Below, piece by piece: positions 44,501 through 61,214 of a stretch of 64,000 nt of DNA. The position numbers were made by a program, and so were the translations under genes. Source of the stretch: an uncultured bacterium (GTDB taxonomy: Bacteria; Omnitrophota; Omnitrophia; Omnitrophales; Aquincolibacteriaceae); contig CAYLPP010000004.1 of NCBI GenBank assembly GCA_964385615.1, forward strand, positions 108,743-172,742, in the 5' to 3' direction. The stretch's first letter is position 1. The number at the start of each line of letters is the position of its first letter. The notes beneath the pieces are model-generated. The model did not search any database, was not told where the DNA came from, and saw only the letters and a list, made by a program, of their open reading frames with translations.

Positions 44501-47500
44501 AACAGTCGTTGGACTCGATTTTTGAAAAAGAAAAGAACCGGAATCTTTCGGTTTACGAACAGGATCTTTTTGATTTTTACGTAAACGGGGAAGGCCGGGA
44601 CGTGCCTTTGGAATACCGCCCAGGGATGCATGGGGGAACAGGCTATTTCGGAAATGATAATGATAAAGGCCGGCCTTACGTCTGGTTCAGCGACGGCCGG
44701 ATGATCAGTAGCCGGTTCCGGGATCCCCGTTCTCCATTTGAAATATTTAAACATGAAGCTTCCCACACGATGGACGCCATCATGGAAAGAAAAGGCGATT
44801 CTAATCTGAAGGGGTATGCCGGTTTTCAGGGCCAGACCAATTCGGGAGTCGATATCTTTTATGTTCCTCAGCATCGGCTGGTTTACCAGGAATTTCGCGC
44901 CAACCTCTGGACTTACGACGGGAATCCCGGCCTGGCGCTCAAAGCTACTTTGCAATCCTATCCGGAACTGCGCACTCTCTTTAATGGAATCGCGGATGTT
45001 GAGAAAAAACCAGCTCCTGTTTTGTACACAGCCTTGAAATGGATGAGCCGTGACATGAATGACCAGCTTTATCCGGATTCAGTTTCCGATATCGGGCAAT
45101 TTGATCAGATTTACATTCACTGGTACCTCGAATTCGCTTCCGGACGGGTTAAAAAACTCAAACGCTCTGAGCTGCGTATGGAAGATATCAACACTATGAA
45201 CGCTTCAGAACTATTTCAGAAACTTCGGGACTCGAGGCTCGGCGACCTGGAAGAGCGGGCGGAGCTTCACCGGCAGTGGTCGGAAGTTCCCGCGGAAAAG
45301 CGCAGGCGGGGCGTGGGAATGATTGTTCTGAGGAAAATCGGCGGGGAATGGAAGGTTCTCTTTGGCCGGCAGAATCACGGCCGTTACAACGGTAAATATG
45401 TAGCTCCTTCCGGCGGAGTTGATAAACCTTTTGATCCGGTTTATGAAAATGCCGCTGAAACCGAAATCCTTCTTAAAAGCGGCATTGTGCAGGATTTTGA
45501 CGGCGCGCGCGGCGGAAAAGAATCCGCCCAGGCCGCGGTTCTGCGGGAACTCAAAGAAGAAACAGGGATCGAGGGGCGGATTGCGGCCCGGCTTGCGGAC
45601 CGCTTTGCCGCCGACGACGGTCTTTTTATGACCTATTTTATTCATGTGGATTCCGGCGAAGATGAAACCGTCCCGGAGCGTGATGGGGAAATCGAACCTC
45701 TGATATGGGTTCCGCTCAGCGTGATTCTGAAATCTGAATCCGGCCAGGCCGGGCAGACTGTTGAACGGGAATTTAATATCGAGTTTGTGCCGGGTCTTAA
45801 ACGGCGTGTTTTGAATATTCTGAAAGACCGGATTCAGTCGCTTCCTCGCTCCGAATTGCGCAATTCTCAGGAGCCTTACGAAAAGCGTCAGGGCCCCACG
45901 GATTTCGAATGGGTCACGCTGAATACCGCCCGTTTTTACGATCATTTGCGTCTGTTGTGGAGTTTGACGCCTAATGTCGCGAAAATCAGGCAGGAATCCA
46001 TGGCGTTCAGCGACGAAGAAAGAGAATCCTTTTTTGATTGGATTGTCCTTCCTTCACCCGCGATGCCGCCGGCGGAATCGCTTCGAAAAATTCTGCATTT
46101 AATCGTAGAGCAGCGGATTCTAGCCAGTCAAAGTAAAAACAGCGATGCTATTTTAAACGCGAATGACTGGGCCGATGTGCTGGCTTACCGCTGGAAAGTT
46201 CCGCCTCAGGTTTTGCAGGCGTTGTTTTTATGGATGGCGCGTTCTTCAATACGCCCGTCGGAAGTTTCGTCTCAGACGCTGATCGATTTTATGAATGCTT
46301 TCATCAGCAGTTACACTGAGGGAAGGCCAAAAGCTTATCAATGGACGCATTTTGGGCCCGCGATTCCCGCCGGTGAATCGGCTGAAGCTAAGCTGAATCG
46401 CGTGACTGCCAGTATTAACACGGCCAAGGCGCTGTTCGGTGAAGATTTTGTGCGGGGGAAAACGCGTTTTATTTCCCGTATCGGCGATTCGCCTTACTAC
46501 ATCGGATTCGGTTTCGGATTCGCGTCTGAGGATCCGTTCCGTCCCACGCTGATTCTAGGTGAGTGGAAAGACGGACAGAAAAATGTTTTTGAACGGGTTT
46601 TCTTTAAAATGAGTTTTGATATTGCCGATACCGGCCGTTTGCAGATTGTCACACTCAAAGGGATCAAGGGCAAAGAAACGGTTATTACCGATTTTCGTTC
46701 CGCGATGGGCGGCTCTCTGGGGCCCGGCCGCGCGCTTTTGACTGCTGCCGCAGTTTTCGCCCGCAAATATAGTTACCGCGAAGTTCTTGGATTAAAAGGG
46801 GAGCATCATACGACCGCTCCGGACGGAAAGCCTTTGAATTACAGCGCGATTTATAAAGGATTCGGTCTCCGTAAAAATTCCAAGGAGGGCCCCTGGCAGT
46901 CGACGGACGTTCTTTTTGAGCGGTTCTCCAGAATCCGGGCAGCGGGTGACGCCAACGCGCAATCGCTTACCCGTTTTCTCGAGGTTTCAGAAAAAATACT
47001 GCCGGCGATCCCTGCCCGCTCCGAACTGCGTACTGAGGAGGAGGATTTTTCCAAAAGCCTCCGGCACATTGAGCTTAAAAAATCCATGACAGACGTAGAA
47101 ATCAAGAAAGTCAGCGACGGATATCCGGGCAAAACACCGATGAGGGGGAAAACGCCGGTGACTAATAACCGTCTGTTGACGAAGATTTTGGACCGGCAAA
47201 AGGGCGAACCCCGTTTTCCTTCGTTGCTGGCCGGGAAACATGTTCTTTTAATCGGGCCGTCGCCGGAAGGCGATGATCTGGAGGCGCTGATCAGACGTTA
47301 TCCTGGGATCGGTAATATTTATCTCGTGGACGCAGACGAAAGAGTTTTTATCGGCAATGACCGCAAACTGCAGGATATGCAGGCCTCAGGAATTGCTTTA
47401 CCCAAAGTGGAAGGTTACAAAATTAACGCGCTTGAATTACCCGGGGAGTGGACGGAGCAAGTCGATGTCGCTATTCACGCGATGGTCATTGACCAGTTCT

Positions 47501-48279
47501 TTTTCAATCCGGCGCAGATCGGGCAGTTTGCCAATGAGATGGTCCGTGTGCTCAAACCCGGCGGCGCTGAGCTTTCCGTCGTCTTTGCCGACGATATTCA
47601 CGCTGGAGACGGGCGAATTCAGAAAATCAATGACTCCCTGCATCTCAAGACTGCCCGCTCTGAAATTCGTCTGGCCGCGGTGCAGCCGACGCTTAACGTG
47701 CGTCAGTCGCTTAAGAATCTGAAAACGCCCGCGTTGGTTTATCTGGATTATAAAAACCTGATGGAAAAATTCTGGGATTCCGAAAAGAACACCTGGAACG
47801 AGCAGGGGATGGAAATTATCGCCATGACCGCAATGCACCCGGACAAAATCCGTCTGGTGATTTCAGGCGCGGATCTGATGGATGACCGGCTGAAAGCTTT
47901 TCGGGACTTGCGGGATTCCGGGAAGAATGTGCGGATCACGGACTTGTCCGCGGCTGAAGCCTATGAAGCTTCGCAAAAGGATTTCATTAAGGGCTGGAAA
48001 AATCATGTGAGTATTCATCTCTCCAAGGATCTGCCCGGGCTTAAGAACTCTTTTAATAAAACCCAGCAATCTGAGATTTATTTCTTCCGTTACGCTCGCC
48101 AGGACAGGCAAGGCGGCTTGCTGGCGGCGGCTCTGCTCTGGGCGCAATACGCGGAAGACGGCAAAACAATGGACGGTGTTACCCGGGATGAAGAAGGTTT
48201 CCTGACCCTGACGGAAGGGTTTATCCGCCAGATCATTCAGAAGTACGAAGCCCGTCTGGTTGTCGCTTTCTCGGCGTAA
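32542..48279 (+). CDS. Giant secreted multi-domain protein (5245 aa) carrying a series of unrelated enzyme-like modules
   Basis: Uninterrupted 15.7-kb ORF. It opens with a signal peptide (MKSYKKPRALRLTALAVLLCFLTSQGGPEARA/FS). Motif-level modules are listed as separate features below. Confidence 0.8.
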   Translation: MKSYKKPRALRLTALAVLLCFLTSQGGPEARAFSAPEGPSIPQKFVHLEESFQGTSGKTLLFIQDAHESLEAQENIAKAIQYFVGSQGVKTVYEEGYEGEVPTDSYFAFIHDPKIRRRVSYFFLDKLRIGGAEFAHINREKDFKLIGADSIKLHLENIAQYQKASARQKEVAEDLRAVLTEFEKLGNSHYSEKIKIWLKLRGRFDSNRLPLPDYLKRTAGLLADTRAYPLISLLISPGINQDREKLKKLEAMDPRQLFSEIDRMENDLAQKELKGKEELKIFQYQKEIMLLVRLNNLEVSAPEYETAQAVLEKLQTRELAEFIARESKRTQVLSREWEEEIRHALDFYKIANARDREIERGIEGFLKNPDENTAVLVFGGFHKNAVKSFLRSRNISYQILSPIISGEDAVHRAYYRELMSEGFYDFEKIAAPSRAARPQTLMTLPQARSEIRGVYRTALDKPDLEYPLFEKEAVRAFNSPAARSELRKMFAVEDEVVRVEIAQTSGKYVLSAYNLRKQETEPRVRVELIEPLSGEEEPARLVLGDIVESHIRADEFLRRALYVLLKKSSVQMVGYLPKTGSAEEMDKIFTWLEKQPGISLLKGNSATVKYDAAEVLMPGYFIGEWNRIRSSKDYGEQVSDFLDSLLLFYSSETDKKHLHDFLLFLLRDPDFIIRRQAVELMLRYVRIPVDQIFLHLENPDSGPFRDDQVSLPNPLSSELATANKRLALLVFLSQISQAVKAQRWAVDAYYGAVLRQRFASELETSAGDPVFDIANESALMESIQNEPKAGLGHAGKMSALEVLVREYFRYLYVTEVRKQADPFKWLHDDLYAMVPQLKIPKTEALIIRMTSKFRSELRTENPWDGRVREVRLNADRSAASVVFEDGKTVELTEKFEEGAYHEFFAYHENGRRLLLKVMKPGLDGDRYDKGVKSLENEARISDILRRVKHMQNVTNVIWLGTIPGSGDALLISGPEAQSLKDWRERLTLQERGGVFRQYVEQIFQAYSGPERESVSIHDLKPANGLLKVTRNPDGSLRYTVHVIDLEAGKMTEDIPFRDIWRGTYPYLPNAELIAMLMTELGRHKTLGLVGFMELLIFFQDFVLDDDAMNGGTANVEKFLRRKDKAVFENIVKKISDYEKYRKIWYYEEHPGDPVDLNALFADLIESLRVIEGFKVRKVLFVESWWNWFAGFISMIFRKLLALLPKRTRALPFEFNDAESTRLPAAPPADDGISSEAPTPRPETAGTDTLSQFRRLMFLLEALGPQFSERDFVRKGNRTVRELSSLYLIEKAAESNDALDVSIYEQAENDVRRVYGWLKRPVDSYAEDTIRYIREKFITPRSELRTAARVEDNGVKLREILGRLIRTRTSGEVVILPGISQHPAVIDKDTLEKDKKALTDLIRLYLKQAISLGPPSSYYLPWDIFPFERNSIELETLVSLGRYLGFWKTEPDPGSKFPSAAILRTYRTRIPLIGDFNLHGDSVKEGRLAELNDLERLEILHRVFAEVKTEMETEMLPGYFDMSGPLRFDSFREIPGIDDLEDFERRGVLGKGKEAAVFSAGTGTLPALLAAFTRSGKITVYEKNSYFLAKARKAVERLHHLGVLDEGRFTWVKEDWRNQKDDWKKFDFILLPPAGQSESPASEKEIQESVSAQAVVYKFARSEVRSVRALIQQADHLERTGALIPEVSSQFVNRHMGPYRTALQLLTNRILAEDLSDDAFLELWTEYLKALKTADLPLLVQVPIHIVAVMRMHGAQMASWARVWFSKPRKDWRRIVHVLSAEAGDETLMGTLLRREILPFMDSYMNARKREWMDEKTPEDRAARWKYHWTQAGENPGVEAVEKAGSDYLEEFIQGLPVSFRQTDPGKDWPSQSQSLLEMLSPAGDGLLSLIIEAEEKSGLDASQLIVQFDERLNFLPAFVHKLFMNDLLKKYKVYLLKIWLRNLQEQAGFEYQAGDYFGQVKITIEAKANEGAGLKAYFSGAPDWKFEPDGRTLKFPELSGVEDSENRPGMFKAPGVFWQILGDFQLKFLEKDGRRILVPIAYLEEVQSSTGYRDIRNRTEHLKSARKLNRGRTLAVDAVARAAAKMGVLVMARGPETASLFIYNRRTLAQIDPGSRTEIEMHYVSPFSNTQHWKKVEAPSYAGTDYYLFEGNREVLKRHGWPEDTIQQLLRSEVRRDPRENIRMDLTENWRRFLNGEAADPEIADQVERALKSKLDHYLLITALIRLHVSQAVTEEQIFSGLERLMESVSTEGKEYLSILGIILSQRNFAEGFAGLNPESGAFYFDLIGMTQTGDVLPEVRPLNQRNEAVGALLNLDAPDKKTLMDGVRDVTGEKALTPEDLNPLTDIVRIQAGDTQDVYMISALLKDGRRVPFILMAARGRTALRAVRREFENFEPYRDDERAVHVIGWSQTGNEAGYTSRFSNTEEIIYVSMSEPALHGETPGNFTKNSDLPLRVGEIRGAESLRKITAAFASAIVYFYKADLKRSVQFIVSSAGDLNFYDSDFQPIAEQPGKYEVKPEVEKLRTRLIAFRGYNDEVDPAHLIAELFDFTYFTPDSSDLMTGPVHDDAMIQGVLDGLVQGLEDKLKDPVLARKTAMEWLQAYLNAFSDYENPVFGPPINVIPEVRGRIARLRREVKQAEKRSELRVNPKSEGLDLNGYAWLKELPVAHFKELKDFLEMLFGLDQSGKLLELEKRERILEQSAYFLRLFQDRVKYPRGFDEIPPGIFAHSAGMFFISNLSYLGIYRQLESEGVLQPGAVKNLIELGPSFWNYSSVLQKAYPNLQHALGVDNDPAKTAGFQQGAVQLLGVDPAVFQYEIADFKSLDQNQKIRQWMDQNGKSDVLFLQNPEPQSRPGVFFTVPEYRDFLARAGSLLDEKGKMIVVIDEDRLDHDGNPELLSVIRGLVYQTLTGFRIPQQAGFLGMPELRKVKILAIPQPELVRLAQRSEMRALNFTPVYAVEERIELIEEIRKQSALNSEPPFVILEGGKGSGKSTLARQIAGSLSQKEPGREGVVIEADWFHRVPSGLTAQLRRLAGLFFWMILRWVRILSEEAFNQKIFEAYFDQEALQRFLHDLGSARTSSEPVPVKIRDHIKKEDVSVLIGRRTPVVFEGMLSTFLLKGWSGIRVHVMTPGARARERYKAREKQKGKGNFRIFMESHDFLAGWFNRHGRKVQFDYGYVTTANFLKDSAWTMIQLSGGKGTRMGPGVPKPLRQLKGKPLFEYSLDTAKRNGLPVIAVGSSNQDLRKALKPRVQGYVEEESSVESAFFSPLSKYGFLKGNLVFIGGDTVITDPSILRSLMLAHEKKSLIPALMTFSTVRVSNPQGLDRVVRDSKGRYVTFIKQEEIEWLRSSGQTLKLGDGTELKTSELDAINEVWPAVIAMSAFAYRILGFLLKFKDAFTVPKFVKKKTISVDKILNRGARRRFLMALGAVRIHQIEQKDAILNINTPQQLEEAERTLTARSELRTSQAAELVRDLQRWKLGFHSEGFALEIYAREILLLKELGILNESSSVFSFLTGADFLPGLFAGKFYSTEKRFNAEQMGRIWSLTAKRDAFKSNLPVSDAEMEALKAKTEHEQADVLNPEFIKRWTGKMKAGDTVYLRFVPEHLSDGVGRRDVRKIETWLDQLITLAPDGVHFVIFDFNESSLPGGTAGYLQSRYAGILTDEIKFRLGKEEYLEWQKINEWEILGRHLKRVSLSLDGQLMDLAQGGRLTVLTKPPARSESRNLPDAQPPVEISFEKIDGFMQEIRSLMARKPWNLYNISEKEEYVADAAKAYLEKIQGILESVSAEVKTSKDAVRLRLLETAAEDFDYFLNVLILLENRELKEVSWNRLEKGQGIHHYFKFDYKSRTYSVEVFARWSRGQGPEARFEINFPQQDRESFRLDLSSYLGNSRASFDMPTSVRKLVPDHTELFHHNIPDLSYQENFQNYVIGLDQKISRSELRGSLPLIETSAKKPRRDPELVEKMKLRITVVGATAEDIAKGQQSLDSIFEKEKNRNLSVYEQDLFDFYVNGEGRDVPLEYRPGMHGGTGYFGNDNDKGRPYVWFSDGRMISSRFRDPRSPFEIFKHEASHTMDAIMERKGDSNLKGYAGFQGQTNSGVDIFYVPQHRLVYQEFRANLWTYDGNPGLALKATLQSYPELRTLFNGIADVEKKPAPVLYTALKWMSRDMNDQLYPDSVSDIGQFDQIYIHWYLEFASGRVKKLKRSELRMEDINTMNASELFQKLRDSRLGDLEERAELHRQWSEVPAEKRRRGVGMIVLRKIGGEWKVLFGRQNHGRYNGKYVAPSGGVDKPFDPVYENAAETEILLKSGIVQDFDGARGGKESAQAAVLRELKEETGIEGRIAARLADRFAADDGLFMTYFIHVDSGEDETVPERDGEIEPLIWVPLSVILKSESGQAGQTVEREFNIEFVPGLKRRVLNILKDRIQSLPRSELRNSQEPYEKRQGPTDFEWVTLNTARFYDHLRLLWSLTPNVAKIRQESMAFSDEERESFFDWIVLPSPAMPPAESLRKILHLIVEQRILASQSKNSDAILNANDWADVLAYRWKVPPQVLQALFLWMARSSIRPSEVSSQTLIDFMNAFISSYTEGRPKAYQWTHFGPAIPAGESAEAKLNRVTASINTAKALFGEDFVRGKTRFISRIGDSPYYIGFGFGFASEDPFRPTLILGEWKDGQKNVFERVFFKMSFDIADTGRLQIVTLKGIKGKETVITDFRSAMGGSLGPGRALLTAAAVFARKYSYREVLGLKGEHHTTAPDGKPLNYSAIYKGFGLRKNSKEGPWQSTDVLFERFSRIRAAGDANAQSLTRFLEVSEKILPAIPARSELRTEEEDFSKSLRHIELKKSMTDVEIKKVSDGYPGKTPMRGKTPVTNNRLLTKILDRQKGEPRFPSLLAGKHVLLIGPSPEGDDLEALIRRYPGIGNIYLVDADERVFIGNDRKLQDMQASGIALPKVEGYKINALELPGEWTEQVDVAIHAMVIDQFFFNPAQIGQFANEMVRVLKPGGAELSVVFADDIHAGDGRIQKINDSLHLKTARSEIRLAAVQPTLNVRQSLKNLKTPALVYLDYKNLMEKFWDSEKNTWNEQGMEIIAMTAMHPDKIRLVISGADLMDDRLKAFRDLRDSGKNVRITDLSAAEAYEASQKDFIKGWKNHVSIHLSKDLPGLKNSFNKTQQSEIYFFRYARQDRQGGLLAAALLWAQYAEDGKTMDGVTRDEEGFLTLTEGFIRQIIQKYEARLVVAFSA
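32700..33780 (+). other. N-terminal domain of giant ORF 1, shared with giant ORF 2; possibly TraB/GumN/Tiki-like
   Basis: LFIQDAHESLEAQ ... VFGGFHKN in ORF 1 parallels LVLHVQNIHGNYEAQ ... LVTGGFHTQ in ORF 2. A first-His motif near the N-terminus and a GGFH motif about 320 aa later resemble the TraB/Tiki GxxH pair. Confidence 0.35.
35240..35800 (+). other. Protein-kinase-like / aminoglycoside-choline-kinase-like module in giant ORF 1
   Basis: Catalytic-loop-like IHDLKPANGLL (HxDxxxxN, about 35587-35613), an upstream LLLKVMKPG (candidate VAIK lysine) and a downstream DLEAG (DFG-like). Confidence 0.45.
37190..37445 (+). other. Class I SAM-methyltransferase-like module (1) in giant ORF 1
   Basis: Motif I-like AVFSAGTGTLPALLA, an acidic post-I residue in ITVYEKN, and a motif IV-like FDFILLPPAG (compare FDLIVSNPPY of HemK-type enzymes). 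Confidence 0.35.
41500..41526 (+). other. Walker A P-loop (GGKGSGKST), kinase-type NTPase module in giant ORF 1
   Basis: VILEGGKGSGKSTLARQIA followed by VVIEADWF (hydrophobic strand plus Asp, Walker B-like). It resembles small-molecule/nucleoside kinase P-loops. Confidence 0.5.
42127..42430 (+). other. Sugar-phosphate nucleotidyltransferase (NTP_transferase) module in giant ORF 1
   Basis: LSGGKGTRMGPGVPKPL matches the (L/A)GGxGTR(L/M)xPxTxxxPKPL signature of RmlA/GlmU/LicC-type nucleotidyltransferases. FIGGDTVI lies downstream. Confidence 0.6.
44752..44766 (+). other. HExxH motif (HEASH), candidate zinc-metallopeptidase-like site in giant ORF 1
   Basis: FEIFKHEASHTMDAIM sits in a region with no other recognised fold. 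The motif alone is weak evidence. Confidence 0.25.
45300..45730 (+). other. NUDIX hydrolase module in giant ORF 1
   Basis: Canonical Nudix box GGKESAQAAVLRELKEETGIEG (Gx5Ex7REUxEExGU) at about 45511-45576, preceded by a beta-rich GVGMIVLRK segment. Confidence 0.7.
47236..47600 (+). other. Class I SAM-dependent methyltransferase module (2) in giant ORF 1
   Basis: Motif I-like KHVLLIGPSPEGDDL, then VDVAIHAMVIDQF and the classic RVLKPGG motif. Confidence 0.55.
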
Positions 48280-48332
48280 CCGTGCAGGTCCGGTCGAATA
48301 CGGTTTTGCATATGATGGTCATATGGGCGGGC

Positions 48333-48360
48333 TTGTTTATTTAAGGATTTGGGGTATATT
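48333..48360 (+). promoter_or_regulatory. Candidate sigma70 promoter for giant ORF 2 (TTGTTT, 16-nt spacer, TATATT)
   Basis: The hexamers lie in the 169-nt AT-rich spacer between the two giant ORFs. Spacing was counted by hand. Confidence 0.25.
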
Positions 48361-48448
48361 TTAATGCGGATTTATTTTTCTTTAATAAGGGACTTGTTTT
48401 TATTTTACGGGGGGATATCAGGCAATTTACATAAAAAGGCGAGCGAAA

Positions 48449-51400
48449 ATGGTCATGACGAAAAGGAAGAAAAAAATCCGCAAGATTTTTACCTTGGGGA
48501 TCCTTTTTTGCTTTTCCGCCACAAATATCTGGGCAATGCCCGAACCCGGTCTTATACTCCTTCCGCAAAAAGAAACGCCCGCGTTTCTGCAGGTTGAAAT
48601 TCCAAAAGACATTGCTTCGATTGAAGAGGTTTATGAAGCTCCGCCCAAAAGCGATCCGCGTTTAGTTCTTCATGTGCAGAACATTCACGGCAACTACGAA
48701 GCGCAGATGCAGATCAAGAAACTTCTCGATTACCTTTACAAACGCTACGCTTTTAAACTTTTATTTGTGGAAGGTGCCGTCGACACTCTCGATCCTGCCT
48801 ACCTTAAACTCTTTTCTGAGGAAGATCGAAATCAAAAATTAGCCGATTACCTCGCGAAGCGGGGAGAGCTCACCGGCATTGAAACTTACATGATGGAAGC
48901 TCCCCGTGATGTCCGCGCGGTGGGCATTGAAGAGCCCGCTCTATACCGTAAAAATCTCGAAGCTTACAAAGCTGTGATGTCTAAAAGAGAAGAAACGGAT
49001 AAGTTCCTCAGGCGTTATGAAGAAAAGCTCGAGCTTTTGTCTTCCCGAAATTTCTCTCCTGAGACCCGGCGTTTAATCAGTGAATGGAAAAAGTTCCAGG
49101 ACGGCCAGCGTGATTTCCTGCCCTATGTGAGACGTCTTTCTCAGGATGCCCGTAAAATTATCGGACTCGATCTCGAAAGTCTTTTCGCTCAGGTCGAGTG
49201 GCCTCAAATGACCCGGCTTTTAGTGCTCCAATCGATGGAAGCTGAGTTGAATCTTGAATCGGCTCAAGATGAAAAACAAAAGGTCTTGAGTTTTTTAAAA
49301 GAGAAAAAGATATCGTCTGAAATTTTAACTGCCATTGAAAAACTGGGTGAGAAACGCATTACGATGACGCGTGAAAATTCTGAAGCCGCCCGCCTGGAAG
49401 ATTTGCCCCGTTACCTCTTGGAGCGTCTTGTCGATGAAGCCAGCCCTCGAGGTTTTTACTTCCACGACTATCCCGCTTTTAGCTTGTGGGCCGGTTATCT
49501 GATTCTTCAAAGCGAGCTTGATTCGAGGACTCTTTTTGATGAAATTGAGAGGGTTTTCGAGAAGACGCTCGATCAGCTGACGGTAACCCAGGGTGAAAAA
49601 AATCTGATGGAACTTTACCGTGACGAACGTCTTCTCAATAAACTTCTTCATCTTGAACTGACCCGTAAGGAATGGGAAAAGGTCAGCTACCGTAAAGAAT
49701 GGAACCATCCCTCGGCTATGCTGAACCGCCTTAAAAAAATAGGGCAGGAATTTGACTCTCGGTTAAAAAGGACTCCGGAAACTTTGGTGCCCAAGCAGGA
49801 AGTGACAGGCATGGAAGAATCTCCGGAGTCTGAAGAATTTCCGATGAACGGTCTTTTTGAAACCGCTGTGAGCTTTTACGATTTTGCCCGCGAACGCGAG
49901 GCTGTGTTTATGAATACGATCAAAAAGGAAATGAGCGCTCAGAAAACAGAAAAAGCCGTGCTGGTTACCGGCGGGTTTCACACGCAGGGTATTTTAGAAA
50001 TGTTCCGTGATGATGAAATTAATTATAGCGTGCTTATGCCGAGGATCGCGGGAAGCGACCTGAGCACCGACAATTACGTTACTAATATGCTGGAAGACCG
50101 CAAAACCATGTTCGACATCGCAGGTCTTGAAGCCATTATTAAACTTCAAAATGCGGACCGCAGAACCCAACAGGGTGCCGACGCGGCTTACGAAGTGAAA
50201 AGAACGCTGGAAGCCTACGCGAAGTTTACGGGTTCTGAAACGCTTGCTCAGCTCGTTAATCATTTTAACGTTTTCAATCAATCGGCTTTCTCAGTAGGCT
50301 ATAAAGTAACGCTGGAAACGGTGCTCAATCAAGATAACCAGCCTTACGGCGTTAGAATTTTAGTAAACGGTCAGCCTCTGAAGAAAAATGACAGCGATAA
50401 GCGGGACATTGTCATTCCGATCATGACGGGTAAGAATCCGGAAACCAAACTCCCTGAATTTCGACTCGCGGATCACGCGGTGCTTAGGATTGGCGAGTCA
50501 GTGACTTCTCGTTCTGAGGTAAGAGGGGTAAGTGAAGCGGAGAAGGCTCAATTTGAAGCAATGCTTGGAAGGTTGCGGGGTTTAGGAGAGGGATATCTGG
50601 CGGCACTGCAGACTGGAATTACGCAAGTGATCCAGGCCGGTGAGGGGGGTGTTTTTGATTGGGCCACGAGTGACAGCGGTCATAAGGCTTACCGTGAATT
50701 ATTCGGAACGAATACGGGAACGGTCAATTATGGAAAGTTTGAAAATGCGGCGGCGCGGCAATTAGCCTCCACGATCGCAGGATTTATTCTGCAGTCGGGA
50801 TTGAAACCGAGAAGCTCAGCCGATCAGCAGGAACTGCTTGGAATCTTAACTCAATATGGAAAAGAGCAGGAAACAGCTGGTGAAAAGCCGTCCTCTGTCA
50901 AGCCGCAAGCCGGTGCTTGGAATGCCGAAATGACTGCAAGATTTCCTGCTTTTACGGTTTCGGTGGATGAAATTGAAGTGCCCGAAGCCCCGGTTATCGC
51001 GGGCAGGAGAGTGGAAGGATTCATGAGAGGGCTTCCTGAAGCCGGGGAGTTTCAGCGCGCGTACGGAGCGCTGGTGGGAGCGCGGGATTGGCTTGAAGAA
51101 GCGGGGCAGTTGGAAGGCGGGGAATTATTCAGTCAATGGGCGCAGGCGGTAGGACTGGTGCGGGAGATTCTGTGGATAATCAGCTACCGTACTGAGGGCC
51201 AGCGGTCTGCTCTCCCGGCTTTATTGAATCAAGCGATTGATGAGACGGTGGATTTGAACGGGAGTGAGTTGGCCTTCAGAGAGTCCGGGCTTAAGAAGCT
51301 GGAGCATTTGAGACAGGCGCTAATGCAGAATTTTAATTGGCCTGTGCCGAGCTTTATTTCAAAGTCTTTTTTGATAAAAGCTGAAGACGCAGCCGCTCGT

Positions 51401-54400
51401 ACGGAACGCATGATTATTTCCCCAAATGGCAAGTACGCGGTAAAGGTCGGAAGGGATCCGGGAATTTCTGTGTTGAGAGTTGGGAACTATGGAGAAGAGT
51501 TTACAGAGGTGGTTGATTCTGTCAGCCAGTCTGGACGCAGGGTTCTGGGGGCTGCCTTTGATTCTGACGGCGGTTATCTGGCGACATCCGGAGTTGATCC
51601 TAAGCTGAATCTGTGGAGTGTCGCTGAGGATGGGAAGCTGACGCTCATCTTTCAAGAAGACGTGAACGATGTAACTTCAGCAATAGCATTTTCTCCTGAT
51701 AACCGCTATTTGGTAAGCATAGGTTTGAATCAAGGGCTGAACCTGTGGCGTGTCGAGAACCGGTCTTTGCGTAAGGTTTTAACGTGGAGACCTCAAGATT
51801 TAAGCCGTTGGCCGGTTGGTTTAATTCGCAGTGTTGCTTTTTTACCTGGCGGTCAAGTTGAGATTGTGGGAGGGCAAAATGCAAGCTCCGGATCGAGGGG
51901 GCTCGATGCGTTTGTCTATAATCTTTTCCCTGTGGCGCCGCAAGCCAGGTCTGAAGCGCGCGTTTATGAAGAAAGGGATCCAAGGCTCGATTTTAGGAAG
52001 GGAGAGTATTACCTGCACGAGAATTTTGGGTTAGTGAGGCTGGAAGATTTTGAATACACCGTAAAAAATGGGGTTCCTGAAATAGCAAGCGATAAGATAA
52101 AAGTGCTTCCGCTGGGTGCTAGTCAGACAAATACGGCAATCATAAAGAATTCAAGTAAAAGAAGCGGGTATGTCGAAACCTCGCAGAATCCAATCACTCT
52201 GACCATTACTAAGGAAACGATGAAAGCGGGTTCTTTCGTCCCTTACTACAAACAAGATCAAAATTCTAAGCTTAGGGTAACCGATGCCGCGAAAGCGCTT
52301 ACAGAAAAAAGGCTTCAGGCCTTGGGGTATAGTAAATCCTCAGCCTTAGTTCCTATTTTGTTTGGGTTTGACGTGATTGCCAAAAGAATTCAGTCTGAAA
52401 AGAAAAGCGGAGTGACGGACGGCTATTTTAGCCGTGTGTATGAACAGATCAAAACTGAAGTGCCGGAAGGGGCTATGGACTATCCTTGGGATGTTCTTAA
52501 AAGCCAGAGTTTAACGGCTGAGCAAATAAAATTTTTCAAAACTTTATTCCTCCGGATTTATCAGGAACAAGGAGAGGATGTGATTTTGACCGGTTTACTT
52601 GATTCCTTTAAGCGGGAATCTGAAAACTATATGGACACCTGGGCTTTTACCACCTCGACCGGGAATGATTTTGTGGAGAATAAAACTTCAAACTTAATTG
52701 GAGCAGGAAGCCGCGGCGATCAATGGTCTCCGTTAAGAACCATCCCGAAGGACATCGACAGATACTACCGTGGGAATCTTTTAAAAGGGCTCTTGTTTTT
52801 GAACAGTGAAACCGAGACTTTGATAAGTGAAGAGGACTACCAAAAAATTCAGGACCGGTTTAACCTCTATCTGAGGCCTTATTATTCGCGAAAAAATCCC
52901 CTTCATGGCTCCGATGCATTTTCTCAGCTGATGCTGACTTTTAAAGACGCTATTCGCGACGGTGATTTTACAGCCGTTAACGAGCTTCTTAAAATTGTAG
53001 GGCCGGACATTGTGAGGTTAAAAAGCCGACTTTCCGGAAAATATCTCGTGGTGCCCGCGCCGTCACCGGATTTCTTTAAAAATCAAACGGTTCCGTTAGC
53101 CGCGATAATTGCGCGCGAGCTGGATTTTCCCGCGAGTTTATTTGCTTTGTCAAAAAGCGGCCAAAGAAAGAAGCCGCAAAAGCTTCAGCCTGATCTTTGG
53201 CATCGAGTTGAGAACGCGGGGAAATCTTTTCTTGAGGCGGATCCTGAGATTGTGTCGGGGAAAGAAATACTGGTGGTGGATGATATTGTAACCAGCGGAT
53301 TTACGCTGGATGCCGCGCGCGAGGCGCTTTATGCCGCCGGCGCGAAAAAAGTTCTTACTCTTGCTTACGGCCGTACGACTTACGGGAAAGATGAAAATAC
53401 TGCTGATGAAAATACGCCTGTGGATGAAGATGAAGCGGAACCGGCAGAGACAGAAGATGAAAGCGTTGCGGAAGCGCAAGGAAGTATTCTCGCCGGATGG
53501 CCCTCCGAAATCATGCTTTTGAAACCGTCTGAAGAGGCTGTGGCCCAGGGGGCTCTTTCGCGGACCATGGTTGATAGGCTCTTTGAAATATTGTCGCCGG
53601 GGCTTATCGATGGAATGGATCAAGATGAGAAAAACCGGTGGGGCCAAATTATAATTTGGATCCTGAGACAACCACAGTTAGGGTTTACGGACAGTCAGCC
53701 GGATGTTGAAAGGAAAGCTGTTGGGCTCAGGATTTTAATGAACTTGAATTATAGGGGGCCGGGTCTGTTAGAGCTGATCAAGGATGAAATTGATTTTAGC
53801 GCGCCTGGCCGCACTGTAAGAGCGAAGGTTTTTTCAGGGGTGATGGAACTGGCCGGCAATCTTCCGCCTGAATCAGCCGTTGATTTATTGCCTGGACTAA
53901 GCTCTTTTCTGGATCTTGCCCCGCAGAGAGTATTAAATAATCTCACATTCGGCGGTGTGAAGATTCCTATGCTGGCAGTTATGAGAATACAGATCATTAT
54001 TGAGAAAGCGGAAGAATCCTTGACTCCGGAAGCTCTCGTAAAAGTGAAACCCGCGCTAAGCACAGTGAAGACGGCCTTAACCGCTTATCTGGGCAGCGGA
54101 CGCTTAAAAAAAGATGAAAAAGCATTGATCAATAATGTGCTTCAAAGTTTATCCCGCTCCGAAGCGAGAGACGATGGCCGGCAAGCCAGGTCCGAAGTGC
54201 GTTTCACTCAGCCGACTGAAGGCGCGGAAAAAATAACAGAACCGGGGGGTGTGCCTGGAATTCCGGAGCGCTTTAACGGCGTGCAATTCCCTTCAGGTTC
54301 AGAGTTGTCCCGATGGTTTATGACGGTGGAGCCGAAGCTGCCGGTAAAGGTTCGCGTGCCGTTTTTAAGCGGGGGATTTGTCGCCTACGCGGAGGAGCCG

Positions 54401-55159
54401 GCGGATATGGGCGAAGTTGCCGTTTTGGGTGATCTCGTGGTCAGAGAAACTACGCCTGAATCCGCACGGCAAATTTCAAGAATCGCGGCGGAACTTGACG
54501 TGCCGTCCGTTCCGATGGCCTTGCTGTCTGTCATTTCTAATGAACCTGATCTTGAAGCTTTGGCCGTGGCGGCCGTCTTGAATCCCAAGGCTTACTCGGC
54601 CGTCGTTTACATTCTTCCTGACGGAAAATCAGAAGCCGAAGCCCGGGACCTTCAAAAAAAATACGAAGATCAGACCAAAGAGATCGAAGCGCTTCGGACA
54701 GGCGGCAAAGCTGTGGGCAAACGCTTCCGTTTGATTGTGACTTCCAAGGCAAATGCCATGGGGCGCATTTCCGAAGCGGAACGCTATCTTTTCGCGAACA
54801 TGAAGGATTCGGTCAACGCTTCAAGTGCCGGGGAAATGATGGAAAAATACGGGGTACAGCTTGTCGTTGGCCCGAATCTTTTGGATTTGTCACTGCTTGA
54901 ACGTCCGCGTGTCAGCCGTTTGGTCAGGCTTGAACTTGCGTCCGGCGCGCCGGATGCCGGCGCTATATCAGGAACGGCCATGGTGGTTGCGGCTAAAATG
55001 GGTCTGGCCAAGGAAATTGATCCGAAGACTGCCCAGTTAATTGATAACAGGGAGCAGGGCGATAAGGTCATTACGCTTTCGCTCAATAAGCTTCGTGCCT
55101 GGGAGCAGAAACTTCGTTCTGAAATCAGAGCCACTCTCAGCTTCGCGAAGGCGGCTTAA
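48449..55159 (+). CDS. Giant secreted multi-domain protein 2 (2236 aa), with an N-terminus paralogous to giant ORF 1
   Basis: Uninterrupted 6.7-kb ORF. Signal peptide MVMTKRKKKIRKIFTLGILFCFSATNIWA/MP. The shared N-terminal domain, WD40-like region and PRTase module are annotated separately. Confidence 0.8.
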   Translation: MVMTKRKKKIRKIFTLGILFCFSATNIWAMPEPGLILLPQKETPAFLQVEIPKDIASIEEVYEAPPKSDPRLVLHVQNIHGNYEAQMQIKKLLDYLYKRYAFKLLFVEGAVDTLDPAYLKLFSEEDRNQKLADYLAKRGELTGIETYMMEAPRDVRAVGIEEPALYRKNLEAYKAVMSKREETDKFLRRYEEKLELLSSRNFSPETRRLISEWKKFQDGQRDFLPYVRRLSQDARKIIGLDLESLFAQVEWPQMTRLLVLQSMEAELNLESAQDEKQKVLSFLKEKKISSEILTAIEKLGEKRITMTRENSEAARLEDLPRYLLERLVDEASPRGFYFHDYPAFSLWAGYLILQSELDSRTLFDEIERVFEKTLDQLTVTQGEKNLMELYRDERLLNKLLHLELTRKEWEKVSYRKEWNHPSAMLNRLKKIGQEFDSRLKRTPETLVPKQEVTGMEESPESEEFPMNGLFETAVSFYDFAREREAVFMNTIKKEMSAQKTEKAVLVTGGFHTQGILEMFRDDEINYSVLMPRIAGSDLSTDNYVTNMLEDRKTMFDIAGLEAIIKLQNADRRTQQGADAAYEVKRTLEAYAKFTGSETLAQLVNHFNVFNQSAFSVGYKVTLETVLNQDNQPYGVRILVNGQPLKKNDSDKRDIVIPIMTGKNPETKLPEFRLADHAVLRIGESVTSRSEVRGVSEAEKAQFEAMLGRLRGLGEGYLAALQTGITQVIQAGEGGVFDWATSDSGHKAYRELFGTNTGTVNYGKFENAAARQLASTIAGFILQSGLKPRSSADQQELLGILTQYGKEQETAGEKPSSVKPQAGAWNAEMTARFPAFTVSVDEIEVPEAPVIAGRRVEGFMRGLPEAGEFQRAYGALVGARDWLEEAGQLEGGELFSQWAQAVGLVREILWIISYRTEGQRSALPALLNQAIDETVDLNGSELAFRESGLKKLEHLRQALMQNFNWPVPSFISKSFLIKAEDAAARTERMIISPNGKYAVKVGRDPGISVLRVGNYGEEFTEVVDSVSQSGRRVLGAAFDSDGGYLATSGVDPKLNLWSVAEDGKLTLIFQEDVNDVTSAIAFSPDNRYLVSIGLNQGLNLWRVENRSLRKVLTWRPQDLSRWPVGLIRSVAFLPGGQVEIVGGQNASSGSRGLDAFVYNLFPVAPQARSEARVYEERDPRLDFRKGEYYLHENFGLVRLEDFEYTVKNGVPEIASDKIKVLPLGASQTNTAIIKNSSKRSGYVETSQNPITLTITKETMKAGSFVPYYKQDQNSKLRVTDAAKALTEKRLQALGYSKSSALVPILFGFDVIAKRIQSEKKSGVTDGYFSRVYEQIKTEVPEGAMDYPWDVLKSQSLTAEQIKFFKTLFLRIYQEQGEDVILTGLLDSFKRESENYMDTWAFTTSTGNDFVENKTSNLIGAGSRGDQWSPLRTIPKDIDRYYRGNLLKGLLFLNSETETLISEEDYQKIQDRFNLYLRPYYSRKNPLHGSDAFSQLMLTFKDAIRDGDFTAVNELLKIVGPDIVRLKSRLSGKYLVVPAPSPDFFKNQTVPLAAIIARELDFPASLFALSKSGQRKKPQKLQPDLWHRVENAGKSFLEADPEIVSGKEILVVDDIVTSGFTLDAAREALYAAGAKKVLTLAYGRTTYGKDENTADENTPVDEDEAEPAETEDESVAEAQGSILAGWPSEIMLLKPSEEAVAQGALSRTMVDRLFEILSPGLIDGMDQDEKNRWGQIIIWILRQPQLGFTDSQPDVERKAVGLRILMNLNYRGPGLLELIKDEIDFSAPGRTVRAKVFSGVMELAGNLPPESAVDLLPGLSSFLDLAPQRVLNNLTFGGVKIPMLAVMRIQIIIEKAEESLTPEALVKVKPALSTVKTALTAYLGSGRLKKDEKALINNVLQSLSRSEARDDGRQARSEVRFTQPTEGAEKITEPGGVPGIPERFNGVQFPSGSELSRWFMTVEPKLPVKVRVPFLSGGFVAYAEEPADMGEVAVLGDLVVRETTPESARQISRIAAELDVPSVPMALLSVISNEPDLEALAVAAVLNPKAYSAVVYILPDGKSEAEARDLQKKYEDQTKEIEALRTGGKAVGKRFRLIVTSKANAMGRISEAERYLFANMKDSVNASSAGEMMEKYGVQLVVGPNLLDLSLLERPRVSRLVRLELASGAPDAGAISGTAMVVAAKMGLAKEIDPKTAQLIDNREQGDKVITLSLNKLRAWEQKLRSEIRATLSFAKAA
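51420..51800 (+). other. WD40-like beta-propeller repeats in giant ORF 2
   Basis: Repeating units ..AAFDSDGGYLATSGVDPKLNLWSV.. and ..AFSPDNRYLVSIGLNQGLNLWRV.. follow the WD-repeat consensus (S/T-x-D-x-x-h-x-h-W). Confidence 0.5.
53038..53370 (+). other. ComF/GntX-type phosphoribosyltransferase module in giant ORF 2
   Basis: The PRPP-binding motif ILVVDDIVTSGFTLDAAREAL..GAKKV and the upstream KYLVVPAPSP..AAIIAREL pattern are typical of ComFC-family PRTases. Confidence 0.6.
53385..53480 (+). repeat. Acidic low-complexity linker (DENTADENTPVDEDEAEPAETEDESVAEAQ) in giant ORF 2
   Basis: Run of Asp/Glu-rich codons immediately after the PRTase module. Confidence 0.6.
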
Positions 55160-55323
55160 TTTTCAAGGCGCTGGCCGCAAAACCTTAAATCAAGAAATCT
55201 ATTTCTTCCGCTATACACACCTACTCCCCTGAGCTTCTAGCAATTTCTAACATTTCGAGGGGGTCCTTGAAATAAATTCCCCAAGCGGGAACTCTTTATA
55301 TAGAAGTTAAAAATCTGGAGTCA

Positions 55324-56739
55324 ATGGGAGACCCTATGAAAAGCCTTAAGATTTTAAGCTGGTTAGTTGCAGTTGCCATGATTTTTTCATTTGCTCTTCC
55401 GCCTTCTTATGCCTTTGATTCAATCGCTTCATTAACTCCTTCTGAATCCACCCTTGCCGAACAGCCTTCGACCGATTCACCTAAGCCGGCGTCTATCGCG
55501 CCGGCAGTGGAGGCGAAATCCGCTCCTGTGCAGGACTCTACCAGTTTTCTGATGGGTGAAAAACCTGAACCAGTTGTTTCGGATTCTGCCGCGCAAAAAA
55601 ATTCTGGAACTGTTACTGCGCCGGCTTTGGGAGATAATAAAGACGTACCGCAAAATTCTGATGCCGGCGGGGCGAAGGGCTCCGGAGTTTCAATAACGAA
55701 TATCTCAACCGCTTCGAATCCGAATAACGGAACGATTGTGCTTCCCGGAACCGTAAAACCGGGGGGGAATCCCGTTGTGAATATCAACGGAACTATTTAT
55801 GATTCGGAGGGGAATGTGGTGCCGAATAATCCGGATATTCGAGTTCCCGTTTACAGCGATAACCCGGGACAGGGAGAAATGCCGATTGAGGATTTGCCTA
55901 TTCAATATTGGCCGTTTAAACCGGAAGGAAACGTTATTACTCCTAAGCCGCCGCTTCCGCCCGAACCGGTACTCAGACCTGAGACAACAGTGCAGACAGC
56001 TTCCGGCGGTAGAATTGAAACGCGGTATATGCTGGGCAGTGACGGTCTGAATTACATCAGCAACACGTGGGAATATGACGCGGACGGTACTTTAATTACA
56101 GAAACAATCTACGCGGTTGACGCAGTGATTGGTTGGCATATCAAGGAAGTCAGGCATTATGAGCCCGATACCGGAGATCTTTCTGTTGTGGAGGAATACG
56201 AGTGGGGTGTTCAGGACGGAATGACTTTCGTAACCCAGACCATTTCTTATTACGTTGACGGGGTATTGAACAGAACTGAGGTCCACGACTCTCGCGGAGG
56301 AATAAGAATAGAATCACTTTATTATGAAGACCAGTTTGGCGGCCAGCAGACCGGGTTAACAGAAAACTATAATCCTGATGGCGTCCTGGTTTCCATGGTG
56401 TATGTGGACCCTGTTTCCGGGAATCTTCTACAATATCAGCATATTATCCCGCCGTCTACGGATGAACCTGAAATTTACACTTACAATGGTATCTCAGTGT
56501 TTGGTTGGGATCCCAACGAGCCATTCGCAGCTGTGACTGTTGATCCCATTCAGGTGACGCAGGTACCCGTAGATCCTGCCAATCCGGACGGCGAAACTCA
56601 AATCATCTCAACTCAAACCACCCACTATGTTTTTCTCAACGTTACGATTGATGTCATTAAGAACATTGAGACAGGAGAAGAATCGATAGTGAACCCAATT
56701 ACAGGAGGGTTGATTCCGATCACGAGTCCGGTCAGGTAA
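55324..56739 (+). CDS. Secreted protein with a Ser/Pro-rich N-terminal region and a C-terminal region carrying YD-repeat-like motifs
   Basis: Signal peptide (MKSLKILSWLVAVAMIFSFALPPSYA) and a GGAG SD. C-terminal motifs WEYDADGTL, HYEPDTGDL, YYVDGVL and NYNPDGVL resemble RHS/YD repeats. Confidence 0.6.
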   Translation: MGDPMKSLKILSWLVAVAMIFSFALPPSYAFDSIASLTPSESTLAEQPSTDSPKPASIAPAVEAKSAPVQDSTSFLMGEKPEPVVSDSAAQKNSGTVTAPALGDNKDVPQNSDAGGAKGSGVSITNISTASNPNNGTIVLPGTVKPGGNPVVNINGTIYDSEGNVVPNNPDIRVPVYSDNPGQGEMPIEDLPIQYWPFKPEGNVITPKPPLPPEPVLRPETTVQTASGGRIETRYMLGSDGLNYISNTWEYDADGTLITETIYAVDAVIGWHIKEVRHYEPDTGDLSVVEEYEWGVQDGMTFVTQTISYYVDGVLNRTEVHDSRGGIRIESLYYEDQFGGQQTGLTENYNPDGVLVSMVYVDPVSGNLLQYQHIIPPSTDEPEIYTYNGISVFGWDPNEPFAAVTVDPIQVTQVPVDPANPDGETQIISTQTTHYVFLNVTIDVIKNIETGEESIVNPITGGLIPITSPVR

Positions 56740-56752
56740 ACACCTTGCATCC

Positions 56753-56786
56753 GGCATGAGGCTCTACTAATATATGCCTCATTGCC
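56753..56786 (+). terminator. Hairpin (about 10 bp with one bulge, 13-nt loop) between the secreted-protein gene and mutS. It has no U-tract and abuts the mutS ATG.
   Basis: GGCATGAGGC..GCCTCATTGCC is an inverted repeat found by eye. It could act as a terminator or as an occluder of the mutS translation start. Confidence 0.25.
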
Positions 56787-59417: not shown

Positions 59418-61214
59418 ATGGGTGTAATCAATATTCTTTCCGAACATGTAGCTAATAAGATCGCGGCTGGTGAAGTCATCGAACGTCCCGCTTCCATCGT
59501 CAAGGAACTGGTTGAAAACGCGCTGGATGCCGGAGCCAAAAATATCGAAATCGCTGTCCGTCACGGCGGGAAAAGCCTGATCCGTGTCGCGGATGACGGT
59601 TCCGGGATGAGTCCGGAAGACGCGGAGCTGGCATTTAAACGCTACGCGACCAGTAAAATTTCAAAAGCTTCCGACCTCGACTCTATTTCTTCTTTCGGCT
59701 TCCGCGGGGAAGCCCTTCCGAGTATCGCCGCGGTTTCGCGCGTGAAAATGGTGACCCGCACGCCCAAATCGCCGACCGCCGTGGAAGTTTTAATCGAGGG
59801 CGGAAAATTGATGAGTGTGAAAGAATCGGCCGGCGCCAAAGGCACGGTCATGGAAATCCGGGATTTGTTTTTCAACACACCGGCCCGCCGTAAATTTCTG
59901 AAAGCCGATTCCACGGAAGCGGGGCATGTGGAAGAAACCGTGGCGAACCTCGCGCTTTCCCGCCGGGATGTGCACTTTAAATTCACCTCGAGCGAGAAGG
60001 TGGTTTTTGATTTATTGGCTGGAGAAACGCTCGCGACCCGCGCGGCCGCGCTCTTGGGCAAAGACCTGGCCAAATCTTTTCTGGAAATTGAAGCTGAAGC
60101 TTCAGGAATTAGACTCAGGGGTCTGATCGGAAAACCTGGCGTGAACCGGGCCAACCGCTCCGGGCAGATTTTTTTCATCAATAACCGGTGGGTGCGCGCG
60201 GCTTCACTGGGTTTTGGCCTTCAAGCCGGGTACCACGGTCTTTTAATGCACGGTCAGTTTCCGGTCGCGGTGCTCTTTTTGGATGTCGATCTTTCGCGCG
60301 TGGACGTCAACGTGCACCCGACCAAGCTTGAAGTCCGGATTTCCGGAGAAAACGATATCAAGAATTTTATCAAAGAAACGGTTTCCGTCCGTTTGGGCAA
60401 TGAAGGGGATTTGGCGCCGGAACTGAAAATCCCGGCCAGCCGTGCGTTTGGAACCATGCCGACTCCGTTTAAACCTAAAACCACGGCATCGTCCTTTCCG
60501 GAATTTTTACAGCCCTCGAAAACTTTTTACGTAGATGAAGGCCGGAAAGCTCCCGCGGGGATCGCGGAACCTCCGGTTTCCTATCCCGCTGAAACCGAAG
60601 TTCTTCCGGAACCCGTGCTTCTGAGCGGTAAACTGAAGATCACCAAAATTATGGGACAGATTCACAACACATTTCTGGTGGTTGAGACGGAAGAAGGGTT
60701 TATGCTGATTGATCAGCACGCGGCGCACGAGCGGGTCATGTTCGAATCGCTTGTCAAAGGTTTGGAATCCGGAAAACCTGCCAGCCAACGGCTGTTAATG
60801 GAAGAGATTCTGGAAGTTCCGGCCAAGCACCGGGACATTTTGAAGAAAATGACACCGCTTCTTGAAAAAACCGGTTTTGAAATTGAGCCTTTTGGCCAAG
60901 GCTCTTTTGTGATTCGCGCGGTTCCGTCCACTTTCGGGGAAGAATCCGCCGCGGCGGTGCTGAAAACTTTTCTGGAACAGAAAGAAGACGGAAAAGTTCA
61001 CACGGACCTGGAACACCAGAAAGAGGAAATCGCGGCCTTGATTGCCTGTAAGAAAAAATCCGTCCGGGCGTTTGAACCGCTGACGCTTGTGCAGATTCAG
61101 AGCCTGCTTCAGCGTCTGGCGCAGTGTGCCAATCCGTTTAACTGCCCGCATGGGCGTCCGAGTCTGATCAAGTATTCCTTCCTCGACCTTGAACGCCAAT
61201 TTAAGCGCAAATAA
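59418..61214 (+). CDS. mutL: DNA mismatch repair protein MutL
   Basis: GHKL ATPase N-terminus (ANKIAAGEVIERPASIVKELVENALDAGA, DDGSGM) and a C-terminal dimerisation domain ending ..CPHGRP.. Confidence 0.9.
   Translation: MGVINILSEHVANKIAAGEVIERPASIVKELVENALDAGAKNIEIAVRHGGKSLIRVADDGSGMSPEDAELAFKRYATSKISKASDLDSISSFGFRGEALPSIAAVSRVKMVTRTPKSPTAVEVLIEGGKLMSVKESAGAKGTVMEIRDLFFNTPARRKFLKADSTEAGHVEETVANLALSRRDVHFKFTSSEKVVFDLLAGETLATRAAALLGKDLAKSFLEIEAEASGIRLRGLIGKPGVNRANRSGQIFFINNRWVRAASLGFGLQAGYHGLLMHGQFPVAVLFLDVDLSRVDVNVHPTKLEVRISGENDIKNFIKETVSVRLGNEGDLAPELKIPASRAFGTMPTPFKPKTTASSFPEFLQPSKTFYVDEGRKAPAGIAEPPVSYPAETEVLPEPVLLSGKLKITKIMGQIHNTFLVVETEEGFMLIDQHAAHERVMFESLVKGLESGKPASQRLLMEEILEVPAKHRDILKKMTPLLEKTGFEIEPFGQGSFVIRAVPSTFGEESAAAVLKTFLEQKEDGKVHTDLEHQKEEIAALIACKKKSVRAFEPLTLVQIQSLLQRLAQCANPFNCPHGRPSLIKYSFLDLERQFKRK

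Follow-up and report, generated by a model that had tools for sequence, protein, structure and literature searches.

The searched parts of one preprint (bioRxiv 10.64898/2026.06.07.730766) assign the 'multi-enzyme' very long proteins of Omnitrophota to class 1 and discuss length thresholds of at least 10 and at least 80 thousand amino acids (kaa); those of another (West-Roberts et al. 2023, bioRxiv 10.1101/2023.11.21.568195) call the cleavage points of such giants unknown. Here we describe two adjacent giant genes, open reading frame (ORF) 1 and ORF 2, on the forward strand of a 64,000-nucleotide stretch of an uncultured Omnitrophota genome (contig CAYLPP010000004.1, GenBank assembly GCA_964385615.1; hereafter the window). 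Judged by those parts of the two preprints, both encode small members of the multi-enzyme giant kind. A short segment encoding the peptide EIYFFRY lies near the end of ORF 1 (copy 1) and again just after the stop codon of ORF 2 (copy 2), and a reading made from the sequence without database searches had proposed that copy 2 is a coding remnant. We conclude that the two copies are very probably unrelated in origin, with copy 2 a product of chance and ORF 2 intact. The two-copy feature as flagged is not a real feature; the architecture of the protein family is more interesting than the match that drew attention to it.

Two sites that encode EIYFFRY

The core of copy 1 (48073–48093, GAGATTTATTTCTTCCGTTAC) encodes EIYFFRY in the frame of ORF 1. 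The core of copy 2 (55194–55214, GAAATCTATTTCTTCCGCTAT) encodes the same seven residues in the +1 frame relative to ORF 2, beginning 34 nucleotides (nt) past the stop codon, and translation of this frame through copy 2 gives KTLNQEIYFFRYTHLLP followed by a stop. The sequence-only reading was thus right about both peptides and both frames, with a slip of 1 nt in its copy-2 string, which starts at 55188 and not at 55189. Its consensus KTxQxE was inexact: KTQQSE and KTLNQE agree at K, T and E only, and the shared peptide is limited to KT…EIYFFRY. Over the two 12-codon stretches (Table 1), 9 of 12 residues and 24 of 36 nt are identical. The 21-nt cores differ at 4 nt, each at a third position, as expected of the synonymous differences that had been reported; to take these as a sign of purifying selection is circular, because the match was chosen for its peptide identity.

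Taken as found, the two-site match is not beyond chance. Six-frame translations of the window contain 49 exact matches of seven residues (17–25 in shuffled windows), and pairs with at least two extra identities within ±5 residues of each 7-mer, which is the grade of the EIYFFRY match, number 2.5–2.75 in the shuffles. The longest exact DNA run between the two copy regions is 11 nt (E = 0.087 in a comparison of 850 × 540 nt); the same comparison contains a longer but non-collinear 12-mer, and we found no DNA homology between the regions beyond the 11-mer. A degenerate back-translated pattern matched only the two sites in the search, a uniqueness that we discount, as the pattern had been built from these very sites. 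The family motif h-x-FFRY, which was drawn up from the homologues only later, would be expected by chance 0.09 times per shuffled window.

Copy 1 belongs to a conserved C-terminal domain

ORF 1 encodes a signal peptide, an N-terminal domain of ~440 amino acids (aa), 14 modules delimited by the motif RSE[ILVM]R and a C-terminal domain (CTD). Among 1.84 billion representative proteins, phmmer found 31 relatives of the last 216 residues of ORF 1, 8 of them at E ≤ 1e-30. The match reaches the last residue in nearly all of these proteins, which are up to 6767 aa long. The CTD thus closes more than 25 large proteins related to ORF 1, and the CTD-bearing relatives that carry names are Candidatus Omnitrophota. 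A CTD profile built without ORF 1 scores ORF 1 at E = 7e-75; conservation of the domain is thus observed directly. Its most conserved local motif is h-x-F-F-R-Y, with F in 23, R in 21 and Y in 21 of 25 homologues, and in one relative (P0006) EIYFFRY is unchanged. Among the CTD homologues, conservation does not extend to the K and T positions that precede EIYFFRY in copy 1. The domain ends in the pattern ...h-x-h-x-x-[AS]-A, and all of the full-domain homologues listed end in [AS]A, as does ORF 1.

An AlphaFold2 model of the CTD made from 23 sequences has a predicted local distance difference test (pLDDT) score of 87.9 and a predicted template modelling score of 0.85, and describes an alternating β/α domain. 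In the model, IYFFRY is a buried, central β-strand (model residues 142–147), ~60 residues from the terminus, and is followed by a helix, a β-hairpin and then a long terminal helix. A Foldseek comparison of the model with the PDB gave generic Rossmann-like matches only (template modelling score ≤ 0.42, none at E ≤ 1e-3). The CTD is therefore a conserved and structurally confident but unannotated domain, and the homologues and the model together identify copy 1 as a real, conserved segment that is predicted to form a core strand of this α/β domain of ~200 aa. An alternative offered by the sequence-only reading, that EIYFFRY marks a conserved C-terminal sorting or anchoring element, is borne out in ORF 1 as far as conservation and a place in a C-terminal domain are concerned; sorting or anchoring does not fit a strand that is predicted to be buried in an α/β fold so far from the terminus. 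The conservation of the CTD in ORF 1 gives no support to copy 2.

ORF 2 ends at its native stop codon

The product of ORF 2 is identical to the public protein P0032, and its named relatives are also Candidatus Omnitrophota. It contains a diverged N-terminal domain together with WD40 and phosphoribosyltransferase modules, and lacks the CTD. Residues ~1–690 are homologous to ~90 proteins (27–57% identity, E from 1e-216 to 1e-40), and these relatives carry entirely different cargo domains. Across all 104 ORF 2-type proteins that were retrieved, the CTD profile is positive in two, both distant. The hidden Markov model (HMM) of the CTD has no match to the in-frame sequence of ORF 2 at E ≤ 10, and hhalign of the CTD profile against its last 223 aa gives a probability of 0.15% (E = 0.39).

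The subfamily has a characteristic end of its own. Among 92 relatives (P0033–P0124), 64 end in an amphipathic helix with a terminal [AS]A (for example, ...REALQVAKAA, ...AFQQIAKAA and ...AYRAEIRTKASA), and many of those that do not end in this way appear to be cut at contig ends. ORF 2 ends in ...LRSEIRATLSFAKAA, part of a C-terminal hairpin and helix that fits the [AS]A pattern (Table 1). To score this likeness we used a right-anchored ungapped matrix derived from the relatives and restricted to positions −26 to −3, which avoids circularity with the terminal AA. The ORF 2 terminus scores −4.13 compared with an internal mean of −33 ± 12, which places it in the top 0.4–0.6% of ~38,000 windows, and it is 45% identical over 29 aa to the terminus of the protein P0020. 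Termini in [AS]A are found in 3 of the 37 genes in the window, two of which are ORF 1 and ORF 2. The last 38 codons of ORF 2 have a log-likelihood ratio (LLR) of +10.3, the same as the average for in-frame windows (10.3 ± 4.8). Not one of 11,938 out-of-frame windows scores as high, and this stretch of DNA read in the copy-2 frame gives −14.5. Because the terminal pattern and the codon statistics agree, the stop codon of ORF 2 is native: the gene is complete, and it stops where members of its subfamily, a sister to that of ORF 1, stop. At the loci of two close ORF 2-type relatives (P0035 and P0039), other genes follow 18–57 nt after the stop codon, in unrelated contexts.

The sequence-only reading proposed that ORF 2 once had an ORF 1-like tail and lost it through a frameshift, or a sequencing or assembly indel, near 55140–55160. 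These observations do not support it: the relatives of ORF 2 lack the CTD, and its own terminus is typical of the family. A related view is that such an indel, or a recent frameshift, cuts ORF 2 short and that the true protein continues in the +1 frame. This frame is indeed open over 55041–55232 and includes EIYFFRY. The fused product, however, would end in ...EIYFFRYTHLLP after ~25 residues. It would lack both a full CTD and the [AS]A helix that ends the family's proteins, and the matrix gives its hypothetical tail −19.6; by sequence as well as by codon usage the present terminus looks native, and the codon statistics of the +1 frame are those of out-of-frame DNA. We regard such a truncation as scarcely credible.

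A homology between the in-frame C termini of ORF 1 and ORF 2 that was seen by eye was rejected, as its Smith–Waterman score was beaten or equalled by 104 of 500 and 118 of 1,000 shuffles. All that stands of the C-terminal likeness between the two proteins is the short pattern at the very end, as scored by the right-anchored matrix. An HMM of ORF 2-type termini (70 aa, gapped) was poorly aligned and did not match ORF 2, and was dropped in favour of the right-anchored matrix; a single-sequence AlphaFold2 model of the ORF 2 tail (pLDDT 37) was unusable.

Both subfamilies end in an amphipathic helix followed by [AS]A-COOH, at 48256–48276 in ORF 1 and within the terminal hairpin and helix of ORF 2, as in the relatives counted above. 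An end of this kind is reminiscent of C-terminal degradation tags or PDZ-recognition tags, such as the ...LAA of ssrA.

Copy 2 lies in a non-coding spacer

The spacers that follow the two giant genes are poorer in G+C (39% between ORF 1 and ORF 2; Table 1 for the spacer that holds copy 2) than the ORFs themselves (48–50%). In the copy-2 frame, the 24 codons after the ORF 2 stop (55161–55232) have an LLR of −7.4, below 99.9% of in-frame windows, a direct observation that this frame lacks a coding signal. The CTD profile built without ORF 1 scores the copy-2 frame at 7.0 bits (E = 0.38 among 1,771 six-frame segments), which is the best non-self match in the window, yet not significant. Copy 2 is most likely a fortuitous 21-nt T/C-rich look-alike in an AT-rich non-coding spacer, and we infer that its resemblance to copy 1 is coincidental. 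On this account, copy 1 is the conserved h-x-FFRY strand in the core of a CTD that closes ORF 1 and related large modular proteins, copy 2 would be a chance T/C-rich resemblance in the spacer past a complete ORF 2, and the two would share no origin.

Alternatively, copy 2 could be the decayed relic of a CTD-coding sequence, left behind when ORF 2 or a former neighbour lost an ORF 1-type CTD during module shuffling. In this family the N-terminal domain, which ORF 2 has, usually comes together with the CTD; copy 2 corresponds to the best-conserved motif of the CTD and ranks second among the profile matches in the six-frame window; and cargo modules differ among all relatives, which suggests that recombination is frequent. 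However, the whole ORF 2-type subfamily lacks the CTD at the N-terminal identities given above, so that any loss would be ancient, and a 36-nt patch could not keep its peptide identity for that long in neutral DNA. In addition, the missing 66 codons would not fit before the next gene, and the copy-2 frame is without coding-like codon usage.

A borderline collinear extension upstream of copy 2 also speaks for such a relic. A tblastn search of 55041–55336 with 26 CTD sequences gave a high-scoring segment pair of 25.4 bits, compared with 18.4 ± 1.4 in shuffled regions, which continues, in frame, on the upstream side of EIYFFRY as far as 55044 and corresponds to CTD positions ~95–147. About 20 of these 25.4 bits come from the 7-mer alone. 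Downstream of EIYFFRY in copy 2 we found no collinear similarity to the CTD, and the remaining CTD-like fragments do not rise above noise (≤18.5 bits against the same shuffled regions) and are out of order; no frame contains a further CTD fragment that is collinear. The extended similarity overlaps DNA that clearly codes in the ORF 2 frame. The relic would need two accidents, because the flanking DNA codes in the frame of ORF 2 and also ends in a native helix. We take the extension to be borderline and probably a matter of chance, and a relic to be very unlikely.

Some observations nevertheless weigh against a coincidence. When the EIYFFRY core was held fixed and its flanks were swapped for shuffled or genuine alternative-frame peptides, the upstream flank of copy 2 stood out from the null flanks at P = 0.03–0.055 by pairwise alignment and at P = 0.02–0.07 by profile (7.0 bits compared with 2.8–3.9 bits). 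The six frames of the window contain just two instances of FFRY, and the second stands directly after the stop codon of a paralogous family gene; under a hypothesis that specifies this place, a coincidence is far less probable than the E of 0.1–0.4 for the whole window. Scans of genomes and metagenomes did not find an orthologous locus, and P0032 probably comes from the same assembly and hence provides no independent check of ORF 2.

It is also conceivable, although improbable, that copy 2 was shaped by a non-coding function, as an A/U-rich hairpin or a palindromic protein-binding site in the 3′ region of ORF 2 or the leader of the downstream gene, with the codon resemblance incidental. A perfect 7+7 palindrome overlaps copy 2, 33 nt past the ORF 2 stop, and another follows ORF 1 (Table 1), where ~0.2 would be expected in the two spacers; the predicted minimum-free-energy structure pairs the hairpin at 55192–55207. 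However, the fold energy of the spacer is unexceptional against shuffles (z = −0.57), an Rfam search of the spacer gave no match, and the copy 2 region has neither the G+C stem nor the T-run of a terminator. We found no convincing promoter or terminator in the spacer, only a weak terminator-like hairpin at 55277–55291, and no more intergenic copies within the window. The excess of perfect 7+7 palindromes in the window (43 compared with 17.4 ± 4) is measured against mononucleotide shuffles only, a weak null. We therefore keep to the view of copy 2 as a chance resemblance. The proposal of a coding remnant after ORF 2 fails, and it is no basis for proposing a mis-assembly, a pseudogene or a programmed frameshift.

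Table 1 Positions of the giant genes, the two EIYFFRY sites and nearby features in the window
Feature	Position	Strand	Details
Giant ORF 1	32542–48279	+	5245 aa
ORF 1 C-terminal domain (CTD)	47656–48276	+	aa 5039–5245; begins at the last RSEIR, ends ...LVVAFSA
Copy 1, 12 codons	48058–48093	+	KTQQSEIYFFRY; in frame in ORF 1
Perfect palindrome CATATGA-TGG-TCATATG	48309–48325		7+7 nt; 30 nt past the ORF 1 stop
Giant ORF 2	48449–55159	+	2236 aa; stop TAA 55157–55159
Stop-to-stop open stretch, copy-2 frame	55041–55232	+	64 codons; overlaps the last 39 codons of ORF 2
ORF 2 C-terminal hairpin and helix	55070–55156	+	ITLSLNKLRAWEQKLRSEIRATLSFAKAA; fits the subfamily [AS]A pattern
Spacer between ORF 2 and the next gene	55160–55323	.	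164 nt; AT-rich, 41% GC
Copy 2, 12 codons	55179–55214	+	KTLNQEIYFFRY; +1 frame; non-coding, most likely a chance resemblance
Perfect palindrome AAGAAAT-CT-ATTTCTT	55192–55207	.	7+7 nt; overlaps copy 2
Downstream ORF	55324–56739	+	471 aa; signal-peptide-like N terminus
RSE[ILVM]R in ORF 1	aa 448, 483, 854, 1340, 1660, 2171, 2643, 2946, 3463, 3942, 4208, 4436, 4826, 5039		
RSE[ILVM]R in ORF 2	aa 688, 1914, 2223		

Family architecture

Although the match itself does not hold up, following it exposed an unannotated α/β CTD that closes many ORF 1-related modular giants. ORF 2-type proteins retain only the [AS]A helix at their end, and an invariant motif, RSExR, marks the module boundaries of both types. 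The ~440-aa N-terminal domain of ORF 1 is 32–50% identical to those of 12 CTD-bearing proteins. It is common to ORF 1 (32542–33882) and ORF 2 (48449–50509), where it spans ~440–690 aa behind a signal peptide, and neither Pfam nor NCBIfam gave a match to it. Some 100 large Omnitrophota proteins (P0002–P0135) begin with this domain, and their cargo is different in every case and includes HPr, response regulator, dCMP kinase, triose-phosphate isomerase, NUDIX and methyltransferase domains, among others. The Pfam domains that tile ORF 1 and ORF 2 are NUDIX, methyltransferase, nucleotidyltransferase, STAND/AAA, WD40 and phosphoribosyltransferase domains.

RSE[ILVM]R occurs 14 times in ORF 1 (~0.05 expected) and 3 times in ORF 2 (~0.02 expected), and nowhere else in the six frames of the window. 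In 136 family proteins there are 262 instances compared with 1.9 expected; their flanks are unconserved and rich in A, S, E, P and G, and their codons vary synonymously. Each Pfam domain of ORF 1 falls within one inter-RSExR module. RSExR is thus a candidate for a motif that serves in processing or docking between the cargo modules. We tentatively suggest, as a possible though doubtful scheme, a family-wide design in which a shared N-terminal domain is followed by cargo enzymes separated by RSExR sites for proteolytic processing or docking, and then by a C-terminal recognition element. In ORF 1-type proteins this element would be the CTD, FFRY strand included, and in ORF 2-type proteins it would be reduced to the [AS]A-COOH helix. 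Were RSExR to act in processing or docking, it would open the cutting or assembly of multi-enzyme proteins to experiment, and might supply the 'cleavage points' that the searched parts of West-Roberts et al. 2023 (bioRxiv 10.1101/2023.11.21.568195) call unknown. Text searches of that preprint and of bioRxiv 10.64898/2026.06.07.730766 found no mention of linkers or motifs, and the searched parts of both contain no description of the N-terminal domain, of the CTD or [AS]A helix, or of RSExR; a literature search on RSELR returned unrelated software names only.

Neighbouring genes and the loci of relatives

The nearest species-representative genome (L001, CAZPCF010000097.1) encodes a MutS that is 68% identical, with different genes upstream of it, and a genome scan anchored on MutS found no synteny with the giant-gene locus. 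This genome keeps mutS–mutL (67% nt identity; positions 55324–61214 of the window were compared), preceded by a transporter-like ORF and a small ORF instead of the giant genes and the 471-aa ORF. The giant-gene locus appears to be a variable insertion point. The 471-aa ORF, which lies between the giant genes and mutS–mutL, has no Pfam or NCBIfam match and is predicted to encode an orphan secreted protein. Metagenome scans with this ORF and with the last module of ORF 2 found nothing, and look-ups of the exact products of ORF 2, MutS and P0032 found no contig. A word-indexed search with the last 499 aa of ORF 2 was empty but missed even the identical P0032, so this negative is unreliable; the whole ORF 2 query did recover P0032, and negatives of this tool on sub-regions of long proteins are not to be trusted.

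Comparison with known systems

The site after ORF 2 resembles frameshifted or truncated pseudogene remnants in that a peptide matching a paralogue lies just past a stop codon in a shifted frame. It differs from them in that the shifted frame has no coding statistic and in that the gene upstream has a native, family-typical terminus.

C-terminal sorting and anchoring signals include LPXTG, PEP-CTERM, GlyGly-CTERM and the CTD of the type IX secretion system. The CTD of ORF 1 is like these in being conserved at the C-terminal end of secreted giant proteins. Unlike them, EIYFFRY is predicted to be buried inside a Rossmann-like α/β domain rather than a β-sandwich, and the terminal helix (…FIRQIIQKYEARLVVAFSA) is amphipathic and charged, in contrast to a transmembrane helix with a basic tail.

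The closest likeness that we can draw from the searched parts of the two preprints is to the multi-enzyme giants themselves. At 5.2 kaa and 2.2 kaa, ORF 1 and ORF 2 are much shorter than the giants at the centre of those preprints. Like those proteins, they belong with Omnitrophota, as their named relatives show, and have a signal peptide and many unrelated enzyme-like Pfam domains on one polypeptide, and their domain sets resemble those of the 'Dockerin-type' giants (West-Roberts et al. 2023, bioRxiv 10.1101/2023.11.21.568195).

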